DNA of 30,477 nt, taken from the IMG/VR virus record IMGVR_UViG_3300020524_000002, positions 1-30,477 of that record, one strand, 5' to 3'. Below the pieces are notes generated by a model, which saw only the letters and a list, made by a program, of their open reading frames with translations, was not told where the DNA came from and did not search any database. Positions 4,293 through 24,777 of this stretch are shown one piece after another (the first letter of the stretch is position 1; each line of letters starts with the position of its first letter). The position numbers were made by a program, and so were the translations under genes. Origin of the DNA: a virus. Taxonomy: Duplodnaviria > Caudoviricetes.

Positions 4293-4877
4293 ATGAAAAA
4301 AGAAGTAAGACAATACGACATCGACGAGGAAGGTTTCTTGGGTGTCCAAGCAATTTCACTAGTTGAATTTCCTGCTATCGAAGTAGACTTTATCGCGCTC
4401 TCCAAAGAGAAGAAAGTAAAGCTATCTGACATCCAAGAGGAAAGAAAGATGGTGTACGGTGCGGCACTCATTCCCGATAAATTGATCTACAGAGAAGACG
4501 GTGACGGAACGCCATACTACGCTCAGTTCACTTCTAAACTAATTGAGAAGGTAGCGCACAATTTCTTGCTAAAGAATCTGCAACACAACCACACGGTTGA
4601 GCATACTTTTGCCGTGACTGGTTTAACTGTTGTTGAATCGTGGTTGAAAGAAGGCGAGAGTGATAAGTCGGTAGGCTTAGGATTTGAACTGCCGAACGGA
4701 ACTTGGTTTGTTGGTGTTAAAGTTGACAATGAAGAAGTGTGGCAGCAAGTGAAAGAAGGCAAGATTAAAGGATTCTCGATTGAAGGATTCTTTAATGAGG
4801 TGGGTGTTGAAATGTCACGAGGAGAAATAAGAGAAAATTGGGCGAATGAAATAGATAACTACCTATCTTCGCTATAA
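4293..4877 (+). CDS. Prohead maturation protease, XkdF-like (Peptidase_S78_2 type)
   Basis: Motifs MVYGAALIPD, H-x-x-E-H, VVESW and GTWFVGVKV...VWQQVKEGKIKGFSIEG; lies upstream of scaffold and capsid. Confidence 0.85.
   Translation: MKKEVRQYDIDEEGFLGVQAISLVEFPAIEVDFIALSKEKKVKLSDIQEERKMVYGAALIPDKLIYREDGDGTPYYAQFTSKLIEKVAHNFLLKNLQHNHTVEHTFAVTGLTVVESWLKEGESDKSVGLGFELPNGTWFVGVKVDNEEVWQQVKEGKIKGFSIEGFFNEVGVEMSRGEIRENWANEIDNYLSSL
4864..4871 (+). promoter_or_regulatory. Putative Bacteroidota -7 promoter element (TATCTTCG)
   Basis: One-base variant of TAnnTTTG immediately upstream of the 4876-4964 non-coding unit; TTG at 4838-4840 with slightly long spacing. Confidence 0.45.
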
Positions 4878-14499: not shown

Positions 14500-15801
14500 T
14501 TATCGTATAGCATACCTGCCATAGTTCGGATATAGTTCAAAGTACATTCTCATCATCATCATATCTGCGAAGTCGGGAGAGAAGCCGTGTTTCTTTTTGA
14601 TTTCTTCCTTACTGGTAACTGCTTTCTTTCTCTCACGATCCATATTTGCTACTCGCACTACTTCAAGGTGCTTTATTATTTCAGTCTTGTATCTGTCAGC
14701 CGTTATCGTTATCTTGTTTGAATTAATCGATTCTCCTAGCTTAAAATAACACTCCGCTTTCAAGTTCATATAGGTTTCGCTATCTATCGCACGACCACCA
14801 TTGTTGAATGATTGACACTTTAAAATACCAACTACTCCGATACCTAATCCGTCAGCATCAACCACAATGTTAGACAACTTCACGTTTCTTTCTTTGGCTA
14901 AAGTACGAATGAACTCCGCTACTTCGTTTGGATACTTATGCTCCATCATAAACACATCGACCAATGACATTCCCGACCACAGACCAATGATTGTTTTATC
15001 ATTTCCAAGTGCTGCGATGTCGGCAGTGATGTAAGCGGTAGTGCCTATCAATTCGTTTCTAAAACATCTCAACAAGTCATCGTAGTAGTAAAGTCTATCG
15101 TTGCTCTCATCATAGTCCCAATCACCATCTAAAAGTCTTTTACGGTCAATCTCTGGAAGGCGTGACAACTTCTCAAGGTAGGCAGGTTCAAGATTCGGAT
15201 TGTCTGTCGGCAATGCCTTGATGAATGCTCTGTCCTCTCGCAGCGTTCCATTTCGTGCAGCGTCGAAGTAGTCAGCGTATAACCACCCTTTAGTTGGGTT
15301 GCAGGAGAGTAATCCTTTCGGCACACCATTGATTAAGTTATAACGCACACGGCTATCTAAAATATCGATTGCTCGTTGAGATACTTCTGCTACCTCGTCC
15401 ACAAAATAGTCTGTGATTTCAATCGAACCAAGACGGCTGAACTCAGGGTCTGACGGCATAAAACCTAAGTCCATCAAGATAATTTGCGAACCATTGTAGA
15501 ACTTGATAACGTGGTCTTGACCGTTGTATGTGTAGTGAGTGCCAGGGCGAAGTCCCATCTGGTTAGCAATCGTCCAAAAGGTAGCCATTGTTGACTGCCT
15601 AAGTCGCTTTAATTCTGCACGACCGATTAAACCTCTGGTGTTTGCATATTTTAATCTGCGATTAATCTGCCAAGAACACCCAAGAAATGTCTTACCACCA
15701 CCTGCACTACCGCCATATAACACCGTTTCTGTTATCAAATCTTTTGGAGATAACAAAGTCAATGCTTCATCTTGGCGGTTAGTATATTGGGGTGTGTACA
15801 T
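14500..15801 (-). CDS. terL: Terminase large subunit
   Basis: Walker A GGSAGGGKT, Walker B YFVDEV, coupling motif SCNP, DNP.L...Y, RLL.GDW, nuclease Asp in ADIA and C-terminal SPDFAD. Confidence 0.95.
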   Translation of the reverse strand: MYTPQYTNRQDEALTLLSPKDLITETVLYGGSAGGGKTFLGCSWQINRRLKYANTRGLIGRAELKRLRQSTMATFWTIANQMGLRPGTHYTYNGQDHVIKFYNGSQIILMDLGFMPSDPEFSRLGSIEITDYFVDEVAEVSQRAIDILDSRVRYNLINGVPKGLLSCNPTKGWLYADYFDAARNGTLREDRAFIKALPTDNPNLEPAYLEKLSRLPEIDRKRLLDGDWDYDESNDRLYYYDDLLRCFRNELIGTTAYITADIAALGNDKTIIGLWSGMSLVDVFMMEHKYPNEVAEFIRTLAKERNVKLSNIVVDADGLGIGVVGILKCQSFNNGGRAIDSETYMNLKAECYFKLGESINSNKITITADRYKTEIIKHLEVVRVANMDRERKKAVTSKEEIKKKHGFSPDFADMMMMRMYFELYPNYGRYAIR

Positions 15802-20186: not shown

Positions 20187-20530
20187 TTTTTTAGGTTGGC
20201 TTTAATTTGGTTATCAAGAAGTAGCATAGAGTCAGAAGCTAGGAATTGATCTACACCTGCTACCCAAACTTCAAATAGTCTGTCAAACTCTGAGGCATCC
20301 GAGTCAAGCGGACAACTGAACTGGCAAGATGCGTTAATGTCTCCGCCATCCAATAGCACTAAATGAATGGTGCAGGTGTATGGGTAGTTACCAAATGATA
20401 GGCTGCTAGATGCTTGTTTTGTGTTTATCCAACTAATTGTTTTAGTTGGGTTGCTCAATGGCTCATAAACTCTTACGTTGTCAAATACTCTTTGCGCAAG
20501 TGTGATGAAATGTTGAAATGGTGTGTTCAT
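20183..20530 (-). CDS. Hypothetical protein, first gene of the leftward operon
   Basis: 115 aa, starting about 40 nt downstream of a consensus promoter. Confidence 0.75.
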   Translation of the reverse strand: MNTPFQHFITLAQRVFDNVRVYEPLSNPTKTISWINTKQASSSLSFGNYPYTCTIHLVLLDGGDINASCQFSCPLDSDASEFDRLFEVWVAGVDQFLASDSMLLLDNQIKANLKK

Positions 20531-20553
20531 TGTCGTGTGTTTATTAATTTGTG

Positions 20554-20561
20554 TATCTTTG
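20554..20561 (+). promoter_or_regulatory. Putative rightward Bacteroidota promoter -7 element
   Basis: TATCTTTG matches TAnnTTTG; TTG at 20530-20532, 21 nt upstream. Confidence 0.55.
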
Positions 20562-20571
20562 TTTTGTTTGA

Positions 20572-20602
20572 CAAATGTACTACAACTTTCCGATTGCGCA
20601 AA
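20572..20602 (-). promoter_or_regulatory. Leftward Bacteroidota primary-sigma promoter
   Basis: The minus strand reads TTTG (20599-20602), 19 nt, TACATTTG (20572-20579): the full -33/-7 consensus with canonical spacing. Confidence 0.8.
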
Positions 20603-20651: not shown

Positions 20652-21026
20652 TTGATACTAAATAAGAAAGCCATAGGAAAAAAAACTACTGAGTATGAAG
20701 ATTCGGTGCAAAAAGCCGTAATCAACTATCTTAAGTACGCTTATCCTACCGCCCTATACTGCGCTTCCGCAGGGGGTGTGAGGACTTCCTATAAACAAGC
20801 GGTTAAAATGAAGCAGACTGGATATGTCAAAGGCTTCCCCGACCTATTCATCTACGAGTCGCGTAATGGTTATAATGGTCTAGCCATCGAACTGAAGACA
20901 TTGAAAGGTGTTGCGTCACCCGAACAGAAAGAATGGAATAAGCGACTCATTGAACGAGGTTATTCTGCTCACATATGCAAAGGGTTTGACGCTGCCATTC
21001 AAGTGATAGATGCCTATCTAAAATGA
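20652..21026 (+). CDS. VRR-NUC domain nuclease (resolvase-like)
   Basis: E...Q, G..KGFPDL, IELK and S.EQK.W...L...GY PD-(D/E)xK motifs. Confidence 0.88.
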   Translation: MILNKKAIGKKTTEYEDSVQKAVINYLKYAYPTALYCASAGGVRTSYKQAVKMKQTGYVKGFPDLFIYESRNGYNGLAIELKTLKGVASPEQKEWNKRLIERGYSAHICKGFDAAIQVIDAYLK

Positions 21027-21517
21027 ATAATCTAACCATCATATACAATAGACTCAAATCATCTGCAAATCGGATGACTAAAAATAGTTATGATGGGGAT
21101 GAACTTTTGCATTTTACTATTGAGTACGCTCTCGACCACTCAATGAACAGAGTCGACGAATTATCGCCCGATCAATTATTCAGTTATTTAAATCGCGCTA
21201 TGTGGCTTGGATGGAATAGCAAGACATCAGCATTTCGCCAGGTGTATAAACTTGACACAGTTGAGTTCAGCGAGACATTAATCGAGTTTGAATCGTTTAA
21301 CCTGCACGATAGAATCAGAATCGAGAATGTTGACATCGCGCTTTCTCGCCTTCCAGACCACGAAAGAATTTTGTTTGAAGCTTATCTGGAAGATGACTTC
21401 AATTATAAAGAGTGGGCTGACATCGCAGGAGTAAGTGTAGAGTATATGTACAAGTACATTAACTATATCAAATCTAAAATTAAAAAGTATGTGGTTCGCA
21501 CCTGCAAAAACAATTGA
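21023..21517 (+). CDS. Sigma-70/ECF-like transcription factor
   Basis: Region-4-like C-terminus ALSRLPDHERILFEAY....NYKEWADIAGVS and region-2-like N-terminus (DELLH); 164 aa. Confidence 0.7.
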   Translation: MNNLTIIYNRLKSSANRMTKNSYDGDELLHFTIEYALDHSMNRVDELSPDQLFSYLNRAMWLGWNSKTSAFRQVYKLDTVEFSETLIEFESFNLHDRIRIENVDIALSRLPDHERILFEAYLEDDFNYKEWADIAGVSVEYMYKYINYIKSKIKKYVVRTCKNN

Positions 21518-21902
21518 GGAACGTAGGGCTATTTGTTCTGCGTGTAAGTTTAGCCAAAGAGAAGCAAAAGTCTTGTGGTGTGGTAAGCCATTAATCGGCG
21601 GCGAAGTGACCTACAAGAAAAAGAAGCACAAACTCTGTGGCTGCAATATGTTTCTCAAGACTGCCTTCAAGAATGTAAAGTGTCCACTTGACAAATGGAC
21701 TAGCGTAGGTAACCTAACACTTGACGAAAAGGATGAAATCAGAACATTCCTGAAAGACATCCATACCGACTACGTGTCGCAAGAGCAGTTGAAACAGTTG
21801 TATGATTATGCGTCGAAGGCTACTGGACACTATATTGAGCCAACTAAGTGTAGTCCTTGCATCAAAGACTTATTAACGAAATTGCGAAACGATATTGAAT
21901 GA
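21489..21902 (+). CDS. Cys-rich, probable zinc-binding protein
   Basis: R.AIC.AC, LCGC, CPL.KW and CSPC motifs. Confidence 0.75.
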   Translation: MWFAPAKTIEERRAICSACKFSQREAKVLWCGKPLIGGEVTYKKKKHKLCGCNMFLKTAFKNVKCPLDKWTSVGNLTLDEKDEIRTFLKDIHTDYVSQEQLKQLYDYASKATGHYIEPTKCSPCIKDLLTKLRNDIE

Positions 21903-21916
21903 GTAAAGATTCGATT

Positions 21917-21924
21917 TATTTTTG
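21917..21924 (+). promoter_or_regulatory. Putative -7 promoter element upstream of the structured RNA
   Basis: TATTTTTG matches TAnnTTTG; TTG at 21895-21897, 19 nt upstream. Confidence 0.55.
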
Positions 21925-21927
21925 TGA

Positions 21928-22038
21928 TGTATTAAAGCTAACCCTTCCAATGTCGGAATCCATTGAAAGGGTTAAGCAATCGAAAGTTGAAAGCTTTTGA
22001 CCTTAGCCCCTAGAGATTCCGCTAGGGGCTTTCTTTTT
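21928..22038 (+). ncRNA. Putative structured ncRNA with kissing loops
   Basis: Three hairpins (21939-21974, 21980-22000, 22005-22030); loop 1 CGGAATC is the exact reverse complement of loop 3 GATTCCG. Confidence 0.6.
22005..22038 (+). terminator. Rho-independent terminator-like hairpin
   Basis: AGCCCCTAG-AGATTCCG-CTAGGGGCT followed by TTCTTTTT. Confidence 0.75.
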
Positions 22039-22159
22039 GATAGATATAGAACAACAAAAGAAACATAAGCATACAAGTGATGATGGTATGCGCGAACATC
22101 GATACTTGCACAACACCAGTGCTTGGAACGAGCAACTTATGCATTGAAAACAAAGTTAG

Positions 22160-22242
22160 TTTTTTCTTAGGGGGACTTTTTTCTTTGTTTTCTTTCTTTC
22201 TTTTTTGTCCTTTTTTCTTTCTTTCTTTTCTTTCTTTTTGTT
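22160..22242. repeat. Polypyrimidine/polypurine low-complexity tract (TTTC-like units) with a G5 run
   Basis: About 65 nt of almost pure T/C on the + strand after TTAGGGGGAC; intergenic. Confidence 0.85.
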
Positions 22243-22303
22243 AAATAATCTACAACAGACAAACAATTTACTATAATTGTACTCACAATAACAAACACAA
22301 ACA

Positions 22304-23524
22304 ATGAATGTATTATCACTATTCGACGGAATGTCTTGCGGTCAACAGGCATTAGAACGTGCAGGTATTAAAGTAGACAACTACTATGCAAGTGAAATTG
22401 ATAAACACGCAATTTCAATTACTCAAAAGAATTATCCAAATACTATCCAGTTAGGATCAGTTGTTAATGTTGATATTAATAACCTGGAGAAAATTGATTT
22501 GCTTATTGGCGGCTCACCTTGTCAAAGTTTTTCTTTTGCCGGTAAGAGAAAAGGAATGAGTACAAAGGATGAGATTGAGATATTGACACTAGATCAATAC
22601 CTAGAGCTTAAAGAGCAAAATTTTGAGTTTGAAGGTCAGTCCTATTTGTTTTGGGAGTATATGAGGATTCTAACCGACATCCGAAAAACTAATCCTGATG
22701 TAAAGTTTCTTTTGGAGAATGTAATGATGGGCGAAAAGTGGGAGAAGGTATTGAGTAAGGCTATCGGTGTTAATGCAATCGAGTTTAATAGTTCATTGGT
22801 CAGCGCACAAAATAGACGGAGATTGTATTGGACAAACATCGGAATGAAGCCATCGGGACTTTTTGGAGACTTGGAGAGCGTAATTGTTCAGCCAAAGGAT
22901 CAATGCATTTTGCTTAAAGACATTCTTGAAAGTGAAGTTGATGAAAAGTATTTTTTAAGTGAGAAATTAATTAGTTCTTTTCAAATACACGAACAAAGAC
23001 ACAAAGAAAAAGGCACGGGTTTTTTTTGGAAGCCAACAGAGGGTGATGTAAAGGGGAATTGTTTAAGAGCAAATGGCGCATTAGCTCCAACCGATAACAT
23101 TATTATTCATAACCTAATGCAACGTTCATCGACAACTGGCAAAGGCGGAACAGGTCATTTAAGTAGAAATGATGGAAAGACTTACTGTCTTGATACAGGC
23201 AACACTAATGCAGTTGAAGTTAGAGAGGTTAGGCAGTTGAATAGAAATAATGAATCAAACAACAATACTCAACCATTTCAACAGAATAGAGTTTACGATA
23301 TTAATGGCATCTCACCAGCACTACAAGCTCAGTTGACAAAAGGAAGTACAATGATTAATACTCCGAGGATCCGCAGACTAACACCAACAGAATGTGAGAG
23401 GCTTCAAACGGTTAAAGATTCATACACGGAGGGCGTGAGCGATACGCAACGCTATCGAATGTTAGGCAACGGATGGACAGTTGAAGTTATTAAACACATT
23501 TTCAGTTACCTAAATAATAATTAA
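22304..23524 (+). CDS. DNA (cytosine-5)-methyltransferase
   Basis: Motif I LSLFDG, catalytic GGSPCQ, ENV, Q.R.R.YW, RRLTPTECERLQ and YRMLGNGW. Confidence 0.95.
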   Translation: MNVLSLFDGMSCGQQALERAGIKVDNYYASEIDKHAISITQKNYPNTIQLGSVVNVDINNLEKIDLLIGGSPCQSFSFAGKRKGMSTKDEIEILTLDQYLELKEQNFEFEGQSYLFWEYMRILTDIRKTNPDVKFLLENVMMGEKWEKVLSKAIGVNAIEFNSSLVSAQNRRRLYWTNIGMKPSGLFGDLESVIVQPKDQCILLKDILESEVDEKYFLSEKLISSFQIHEQRHKEKGTGFFWKPTEGDVKGNCLRANGALAPTDNIIIHNLMQRSSTTGKGGTGHLSRNDGKTYCLDTGNTNAVEVREVRQLNRNNESNNNTQPFQQNRVYDINGISPALQAQLTKGSTMINTPRIRRLTPTECERLQTVKDSYTEGVSDTQRYRMLGNGWTVEVIKHIFSYLNNN

Positions 23525-23525
23525 C

Positions 23526-23533
23526 TACATTTG
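23526..23533 (+). promoter_or_regulatory. Putative -7 promoter element (near-leaderless transcript)
   Basis: TACATTTG, identical to the leftward promoter element, ending 4 nt before ATG 23538. Confidence 0.5.
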
Positions 23534-24486: not shown

Positions 24487-24777
24487 ATGGGCTTACATAA
24501 AGGGCAAACAAACAACCCGAACGGCAGACCGTCTGGAAGCAAGAACGAGAAGACTAAACAGTGGGAAGAACTACACGAATCAATCGTTGGTATTCACGCT
24601 GAAAAGTTCAATTCAATATTGCAACAATGGGCGGAGAGTTATGACGCTGAAGAACAAGCGCAGTTCGTCGACGCTTATATGAAGATACTTGAATACTTCA
24701 AACCTAAACAAGCAAGAACAGTTCACGCAGGTGAGCAAGATGCTCCCGTTCAAATTACAATTTCTGATAAGATATGA
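24487..24777 (+). CDS. Probable terminase small subunit
   Basis: N-terminal KGQTNNPNGRPSGSKN motif (G.SGNP.GRP type), small helical body and C-terminal beta-like tail PVQITI. Confidence 0.6.
   Translation: MGLHKGQTNNPNGRPSGSKNEKTKQWEELHESIVGIHAEKFNSILQQWAESYDAEEQAQFVDAYMKILEYFKPKQARTVHAGEQDAPVQITISDKI

Follow-up and report, generated by a model that had tools for sequence, protein, structure and literature searches.

The window considered here, namely the whole analysed stretch of 30,477 bases, is a complete virus record carrying direct terminal repeats. Scanning 41 ORFs with PHROG and Pfam identified a protease, portal, holin, amidase, large terminase, VRR-NUC nuclease, sigma-factor-like protein, and C5 methyltransferase, a gene content that marks the virus as a tailed phage. 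Among cultured records, its capsid-like protein matches only those of the Nonlabens phages P12024S and P12024L (27%), and TAnnTTTG boxes are found at the operon starts of the window; together these suggest that the host probably belongs to the Bacteroidota. No integrase or repressor was recognised by PHROG or Pfam among the 41 scanned proteins, so a lysogenic state is not evident, and the same scans of the window ORFs recognised no transposase. Two overlapping TTG...TAnnTTTG promoter-like sites in opposite orientations lie between the leftward and rightward gene blocks (20530-20601). The gene for the large terminase, which is of the Terminase_3 type (Pfam), is on the minus strand amid replication genes (14500-15801), distant from the head genes and from an ORF (24487-24777) that we take to be small-terminase-like on the basis of an N-terminal motif.

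The RNA element is located 3' of the sigma-factor-like ORF and a Cys-rich 137-aa ORF, 265 nt 5' of the methyltransferase gene (Table 1). The family of the Cys-rich protein, a candidate Zn-binding regulator, comprises 444 representatives without a Pfam match, and a sigma-factor-like gene precedes it at the inspected loci. The gene block 3' of the cargo gene, which is the methyltransferase in the window, has its own promoter box at 23526.

Table 1. The element and its neighbours, with positions numbered along the window.
Feature	Position	Strand	Remarks
Sigma-factor-like ORF	21023-21517	+	phrog_1740, E 1.9e-8; fixed upstream neighbour, also in relatives without the RNA
Cys-rich 137-aa ORF	21489-21902	+	fixed upstream neighbour, also in relatives without the RNA
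-33 TTG element of predicted Bacteroidota sigma-A type promoter	21895-21897	+	19-nt spacer to the -7 box
-7 box TAnnTTTG of predicted promoter (TATTTTTG in the window)	21917-21924	+	present in 13/13 sequences
P1 hairpin	21937-21977	+	16-nt 5' arm; invariant G-C/C-G base; two-sided changes at 13/16 pairs
Possible alternative (antiterminator) helix	21969-21976 with 22002-22009	+	in 8/13 sequences, not universal
Loop 1	21953-21960	+	last 7 nt, CGGAATC (21954-21960), pair with loop 3
P2 hairpin	21980-22000	+	6-9 bp, -3 to -7 kcal/mol; formed in 13/13 constrained folds
P3, intrinsic terminator-like stem	22005-22030	+	8-10 bp; two-sided changes at 8/9 pairs
Loop 3	22014-22021	+	GATTCCG (22015-22021), exact complement of CGGAATC in loop 1
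U-tract (TTCTTTTT in the window)	22031-22038	+	at least 6 T within 7-8 nt 3' of the stem, 13/13 sequences
Non-coding module C	22039-22303	+	G5 run and long pyrimidine tract; would be entered on read-through
C5 cytosine DNA methyltransferase	22304-23524	+	PF00145, E 5.5e-39; variable cargo, other genes here in relatives

The first-pass annotation of this DNA had described a promoter-like TTG-19nt-TATTTTTG layout, three hairpins followed by the T-tract TTCTTTTT, and an exact 7-bp complementarity between the first and third loops, and all of these were found in place, including the 13 of 14 pairs of the P1 core (21939-21952/21961-21974) with its single C/A mismatch. P1 is, however, longer than first noted and reaches a G-C/C-G base with one bulged A. 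Across the 13 aligned sequences, the -7 box varies only at its fourth base, which is a free position, and a TTG ends 18-21 nt 5' of it in 11. From the available part of PMC9723704, which also gives the consensus, the Bacteroidota -7 box extends from -12 to -5, and the RNA would be expected to start at approximately 21929-21931 and to end at 22038. P2, of which the loop is not conserved, shows two-sided changes at five of eight pairs and shortens the linker between P1 and P3, whereas the alignment cells of P3 are 100% paired.

Homologues were gathered by DNA patterns and by searches with the upstream protein. The full element was found on 18 contigs, one of them the window, and its locus is the same in all; two duplicate-looking records were left out, and two further copies are cut at contig ends (L021 and L135). 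The 18 contigs yielded 13 sequences for alignment and 12 distinct loop pairs, given as loop 1/loop 3: TCGGAATC/AGATTCCG in the window, ACAATCAC/AGTGATTG (L022), TTCGAGAC/AGTCTCGA (L023), AACGACAAC/AGTTGTCG (L024), AACGACGAC/AGTCGTCG (L031), TCCGGAAC/AGTTCCGG (L039), ACTGCAAC/GGTTGCAG (L049), ACTGCGAAC/GTCGCAG (L062), ACTGCAAA/GTTTGCAG (L068), ACTACTAC/AGTAGTAG (L069), AACAGTCAC/AGTGACTG (L070), and AGTACAAG/CTTGTAC (L094). L074, which has the same loops as L062, was excluded from the loop counts. Several candidates were rejected: 19 of the 20 loci from a first loop-anchored pattern are chance, the last degenerate pattern returned 10 known contigs among 21 and nothing above 15.2 bits in the other 11, and L026, L027, and L071 (60% protein identity) carry another hairpin and terminator with no loop match.

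As to whether homologues keep the stems and lose the loop complementarity, a question raised in the first-pass annotation, the opposite was found: seven contiguous Watson-Crick pairs form between the cognate loops of 11 of the 12 alleles and six in L062, compared to none at 7 bp and two at 6 bp among 132 non-cognate pairs. In a permutation test of the cognate match sum, 0 of 200,000 permutations reached the observed value. Two-sided changes occur at 26 of 33 stem pairs in the model-fitted alignment A10, which leans toward these stems, and at all seven kissing pairs, which are absent from the model; the covariation score of the kiss is 0.71, compared to at most 0.14 for slid registers. L094, held out from the model, was matched at 46 bits and shows its own 7-bp loop match, although the model contains no pseudoknot pairs. 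The relatedness of the sequences inflates shuffle tests, yet twelve distinct sets of letters cannot be explained by it. Furthermore, an exact 7-nt complement has a probability of ~4e-5 per register, and among 25 terminator-like hairpin candidates in the window only P3 meets at least six complementary bases in an upstream hairpin loop.

The strand had been left in doubt at first. The element folds far better than its shuffles on both strands (z of about -5 on the plus and about -6 on the minus strand; 0/200 shuffles as good), so that folding by itself carries no strand information. The stem cells of the 13 aligned sequences, however, contain 46 G-U pairs on the plus strand versus 4 C/A, which settles the doubt in favour of plus; together with the TAnnTTTG box and the U-tract, this G-U excess supports that strand as the RNA strand. 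The cognate loop matches, the covariation, and the G-U excess collectively indicate that the loop pairing is under RNA-level selection on the plus strand. The three-hairpin sequence is very likely a genuine RNA element, and the conserved structured RNA with a true pairing of loops 1 and 3 that had been proposed is strongly supported by covariation.

What is conserved in this element is geometry rather than letters. The 5' arm of P1 is 16 nt long in 11 of the 13 sequences and 15 nt in the other two, and the unpaired linker bases flanking P2 sum to 5-6 nt in 12 of 13. Most invariant columns belong to the U-tract, to the G-C/C-G base of P1, or to a few positions in P2 and P3. None lies in a loop, where the best columns are an A and a U at 12/13; in the kiss, one A-U pair is kept in 12/13 and the adjoining C-G in 11/13.

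The element occurs once per genome, always 3' of the Cys-rich ORF, and no second copy was found in the window or in genomes G001-G005. Among 72 further loci with the Cys-rich ORF, four carry the element (three already known, one new) and 68 give no model match, many of these being of one lineage and one being cut at the element start. At most element-free loci the Cys-rich ORF runs directly into the following genes, and the complete genome G005 is without the element, which by this distribution is accessory. Where the 400 nt upstream are 86-95% identical between phages, the elements agree to only 57-82%, with three to five of the seven kiss positions changed, the exception among such close pairs being L062/L074 with an unchanged kiss; conversely, the elements of L024 and L031 are 94% identical next to upstream DNA of 53% identity. 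By these comparisons, the element is mosaic and moves between lineages.

Downstream of the element lies one of at least four interchangeable non-coding modules of ~240-360 nt, followed by a variable cargo gene, and both module and cargo assort independently of the loop allele. For 8 of the 12 alleles the script called a first gene, and this begins 236-365 nt downstream. Module C is also found in L025, L069, and L070, and with indels in L094, and modules A, B, and D occur elsewhere. A separate TAnnTTTG box is present in the last part of the module before the gene in 4 of 12 alleles (L049, L068, L069, and L070), so that read-through would not be needed for the cargo there. Just 5' of the methyltransferase in the window (22289-22303 region) is a -7 box with one mismatch (TATAATTG), where L068-L070 have a perfect box.

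The modules themselves were also inspected. The G5 run and pyrimidine tract of module C are kept with frame-breaking indels in the distant L094, and its minus strand has a likeness to the purine-rich linker found in replication-initiator genes of phages; the initiator-like ORF of this phage (17053-17442) is short. Module C might possibly be a replication origin, but module A phages are without G-runs and tract, while modules B and D do have G-runs. The minus-strand 61-aa ORF at 22167-22352 was rejected as a type I toxin because its frame is lost in L025 with the same module. Module A (L022:4548-4850; also in L031, L039, L049, and L062) spans ~300 nt of non-coding DNA that is highly conserved across distant phages; it shows two-sided changes at 5 of 85 predicted pairs and is a candidate structured RNA of its own. 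A module-A-like stretch in a phage without the kissing element (L026:4592-4683) gives a weak Rfam match to Betaproteobacteria-1 (33.5 bits, gathering 49.4, E 0.009). Directly 3' of the terminator of L024 lies a tRNA-like sequence (4560-4675) with a D-arm-like start, a T-arm-like end, and a long insert, for which ARAGORN made no call.

The interpretation that we prefer, with about an even chance of being right, is that the element would attenuate transcription close to the promoter, the kiss hindering completion of the terminator. Of the two functions offered in the first-pass annotation, anatomy and analogy favour the cis switch on termination; its tie to the downstream tract turned out to be loose because the pyrimidine tract belongs to one of at least four interchangeable modules that are independent of the allele. 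The proposal starts from what sequence comparison gives, that is, a promoter box, three stems, a 7-bp loop pairing, and a U-tract on the plus strand. Given the established geometry of the polymerase, P1 and P2 would fold first and loop 3 would emerge during the pause at the U-tract. As long as P3 is paired at its top only, loop 3 would then be within reach of loop 1, but next to a folded P2 a linker of 5-6 unpaired bases would be insufficient for both the kiss and the full terminator. Kissing would favour read-through, and zipping of P3 would favour the release of an RNA of ~110 nt. The amount of transcription that continues into the swappable module and the cargo gene, whether started at the element's promoter or arriving from the upstream sigma-factor operon, would depend on the balance of kiss and terminator.

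The steric step draws on a rough length model and on the guanidine-IV precedent. In the model, at bends of 0-60 degrees, the kiss together with a 9-bp P3 has to span 78-90 A, compared to a linker reach of ~67 A, and the kiss becomes feasible with two to three base pairs of P3 open. The model is crude: at bends of at least 90 degrees, or with a frayed weak P2, the kiss and the full terminator are compatible, so that the kiss could merely compact the finished RNA and the model is supportive rather than proof. Kissing-helix angles of 180 and 120 degrees are used in RNA design according to the accessible text of PMC10376919. In guanidine-IV, as described in the available portions of the sources, pairing takes place between the loop of P1 and that of the terminator (PMC7736828, PMC9788692, PMC11611296, bioRxiv 10.1101/2020.10.21.349134), and a linker too short for both this contact and the full terminator results in read-through (PMC7736828, PMC11611296, bioRxiv 10.1101/2020.10.21.349134).

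In addition, eight of the 13 sequences are predicted to be able to form an antiterminator helix of -9.6 to -13.3 kcal/mol between the 3' strand of P1 and the 5' strand of P3; in each of them, at most 5 of 300 pair-shuffled controls are as strong. This helix is absent in the other five, seven of its eight bearers are related, and its covariation on the alignment is not above shuffles; it is possibly a helper in some alleles. A 5' mini-hairpin competing with P1 exceeds the controls (at most 11/300) in only 5 of 13 sequences and is not claimed. As for the input of the attenuator, no regulator acting on the element was identified; since no loop base is invariant, we consider a metabolite less likely than either kinetics or a protein that influences shape or pausing. 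A purely cis role, however, leaves the loop divergence between phages with 86-95% identical upstream DNA unexplained.

This divergence is addressed by an action in trans, which we regard as unlikely: the released RNA would pair through loop 1 or loop 3 with nascent leaders of the same allele and shift their termination, or would form head-to-tail oligomers. Its effect would grow as the RNA accumulates, giving autoregulation or an immunity-like or copy-number-like control, and such pairing suits a molecule for which the cis kiss is hard once P3 is complete. A terminated short RNA acting on the read-through form has a precedent in IsrK and P4 CI, as far as the accessible part of PMC4825925 describes them. 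The loops are nearly orthogonal between alleles, but random 7-mers would be orthogonal anyway. Within seven related alleles (21 non-independent pairs), the kiss is the fastest-changing helix, with 0.51 of positions differing compared to 0.36 in P1, 0.38 in P3, and 0.14 in P2; however, P1 and P3 diverge almost as fast, and the pattern may stem from old alleles having been shuffled and not from selection on the loops. Several alleles coexist in each phage lineage and near-identical RNAs occur in distant lineages (L024/L031). Intramolecular pairing has a large concentration advantage, which weighs against partners in trans, as does the fact that no lysogenic state is evident from the 41 proteins.

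The two actions could also be combined in an RNA identity code, which we consider quite unlikely, with one leader serving as both a cis attenuator and its own trans regulator. The kiss would open the terminator in cis and, after release, the freed loops would ignore all nascent leaders but those with the same allele. If this were true, sibling phages with other 7-base codes would escape mutual control, and each of the twelve near-orthogonal alleles would define a type of immunity or incompatibility. A partner site outside the element that covaries with the loops was not found among exact complements, in one genome pair, or in the downstream regions of the 12 alleles. Two other CGGAATC sites in the window are unchanged in G001, of which the loops differ, and in 11 of the 12 alleles the cognate complementarity to downstream DNA does not exceed the non-cognate one in length. 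A second partner of loop 3 at the methylase start was rejected, its 6-nt matches occurring in 5 of 12 alleles, versus ~2.6 expected by our estimate, and at unrelated places.

It is equally improbable, in our estimate, that the element is a stand-alone compact small RNA with P3 merely as its end and a kiss that locks a rigid shape for protein binding, for use as a decoy, or for nuclease resistance. Such an RNA would be expected to have its own promoter and terminator, as predicted here, and it would agree with the fixed geometry and free sequence, the accessory distribution, and the downstream DNA that swaps freely and at times has its own promoter box. Nevertheless, a cis kiss with the full P3 is strained in the rough model, the choice of the terminator loop as partner couples the kiss to the termination step, and the few invariant bases available for recognition by a protein are mostly stem bases and the U-tract.

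A riboswitch that senses a metabolite or ion by a guanidine-IV-like design with another ligand appears very unlikely. The topology is shared with guanidine-IV and Gd4v, the cargo is often a DNA methyltransferase, and one A-U pair and the adjoining C-G pair of the kiss are nearly constant, but no loop position is invariant, compared to single loop bases conserved at 97% in guanidine-IV (PMC7736828, in its available part). Moreover, the cargo genes are heterogeneous and distant, and the element is known from one phage group only.

More doubtful still is a classical terminator/antiterminator attenuator in which the helix of loops 1 and 3 is the outer helix of an alternative nested fold. When the transcript is cut at loop 3, this nested fold is below or within 1 kcal/mol of P1 and P2 in 9 of 13 sequences, and it comes closer than shuffled controls in the eight with the antiterminator helix; however, it is 5-10 kcal/mol worse in L022, L062, L068, and L074, where the loop match is kept, the fixed loop sizes and P1 length point to kissing of intact hairpins, and covariation gives no support. 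A DNA-level or insertion-sequence-derived element resembling an IS200 left end has a close to negligible chance, because its weak minus-strand match to STnc490 (RF01405; 21.3 bits) is far under the gathering score of 56 with no repeat for 11 other element-bearing loci, and because the G-U pairs favour a plus-strand RNA and the one copy per genome at a single locus, with no transposase recognised, stands against the suggestion made by its movement between lineages.

Collectively, the preferred reading remains the cis attenuator, and the natural alleles would serve as ready compensatory mutants for its steric model. They are also a possible source of orthogonal RNA control parts and, if they act in trans, would represent an RNA self-recognition system in Bacteroidota phages.

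In the databases, the element is absent from Rfam: the whole window gives no match at gathering score, and the E-value scans of the window and homologue loci list sub-threshold matches only, so that the Rfam check proposed in the first-pass annotation turned up no family reaching threshold. Cultured phage records contain no informative DNA match, only pieces of up to 36 bases, and no match to the two upstream proteins; plasmids gave no match, and GTDB genomes none to the core pattern or upstream protein. In the cultured Nonlabens phage P12024S, a TAnnTTTG box is followed within ~60 nt by a strong terminator-like hairpin before recombination and replication genes (L162:10175-10250), in the transcribed part of which a clear loop-loop match is absent. 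The full-text literature searches found no description of a phage kissing-terminator leader, the viral-RNA supplement being only partly searchable. PMC10690425 lists, in its accessible part, ~10,000 candidate viral RNAs, of which 1241 of those from IMG/VR have terminators; the searchable part of its supplements gave no match, and the motif may sit unnamed in the remainder.

Among known systems, the PyrR attenuators (RF00515) are the best plus-strand Rfam resemblance, with a hairpin, possible antiterminator, and terminator, but the match reaches 24.6 bits against a gathering score of 54, there are no pyrimidine genes, and the antiterminator exists in only 8 of 13 sequences. The phi29 prohead RNA, a phage RNA of ~110-120 nt essential for packaging, has two self-complementary loops that covary between phages. 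It is similar to the element in length and in its complementary, covarying loops, whereas the element consists of three serial hairpins with one loop on a terminator, is absent from most relatives (68/72 loci and the complete G005), and belongs to a phage with a Terminase_3-type terminase. The element also resembles the IsrK (Gifsy-1) and P4 CI RNAs, as far as PMC4825925 was accessible, in having a predicted phage promoter, a short RNA predicted to end in a terminator, and non-coding RNA downstream, 3' of a transcription-regulator gene. It differs from these and from P1 c4 in that covarying outside target sites are absent among exact complements and in one genome pair, and from the first two in that no Q-like or antirepressor gene was recognised here and no Rfam match was obtained. 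In the lambda pR'-6S RNA-tR' leader, a promoter-proximal terminator follows a nuclease/regulator block and precedes accessory and late genes, and the element, judged by its sequence, would likewise be a promoter-proximal terminator ahead of accessory or late genes. The downstream gene block here, however, has its own promoter box, PHROG and Pfam detected no homologue of the Q-family antiterminator among the 41 ORFs, and to our knowledge the lambda leader has no counterpart of the kiss.

The closest likeness is to the guanidine-IV riboswitch, also named the mepA/GGAM-1 motif, and its variant Gd4v (PMC7736828 and PMC9788692, in their available parts), in which a 5' hairpin loop likewise pairs with the loop of an intrinsic terminator over a short linker and a steric competition of kiss and terminator is likewise proposed. 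No guanidine family is listed in the Rfam 15 scan to E 10, which bears on guanidine-IV as far as that release contains a model of it. The element differs in having the extra covarying hairpin P2 in its linker in 13/13 sequences, compared to two hairpins and a single-stranded linker in guanidine-IV, in a P1 fixed at 15-16 bp, and in a kiss of free sequence with no invariant loop bases instead of 97% conserved nucleotides. Furthermore, it is phage-borne and is followed by a non-coding module and methyltransferases or variable ORFs rather than by sugE/mepA-type genes, the distance to the first gene being ~240-360 nt. With three defining features different, the element is, on its sequence, of guanidine-IV-like topology and not a member of that class. 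It is an uncatalogued element with an unusually clean natural covariation of a terminator-loop kiss, for which we infer a function in attenuation. In the accessible part of the surveyed literature, antitermination by a kiss onto a terminator loop is shown only for the guanidine-IV class (PMC7736828, PMC11611296), and a phage version, with its twelve near-orthogonal loop pairs and helices of fixed length, would demonstrate that no ligand pocket is needed for this mechanism.
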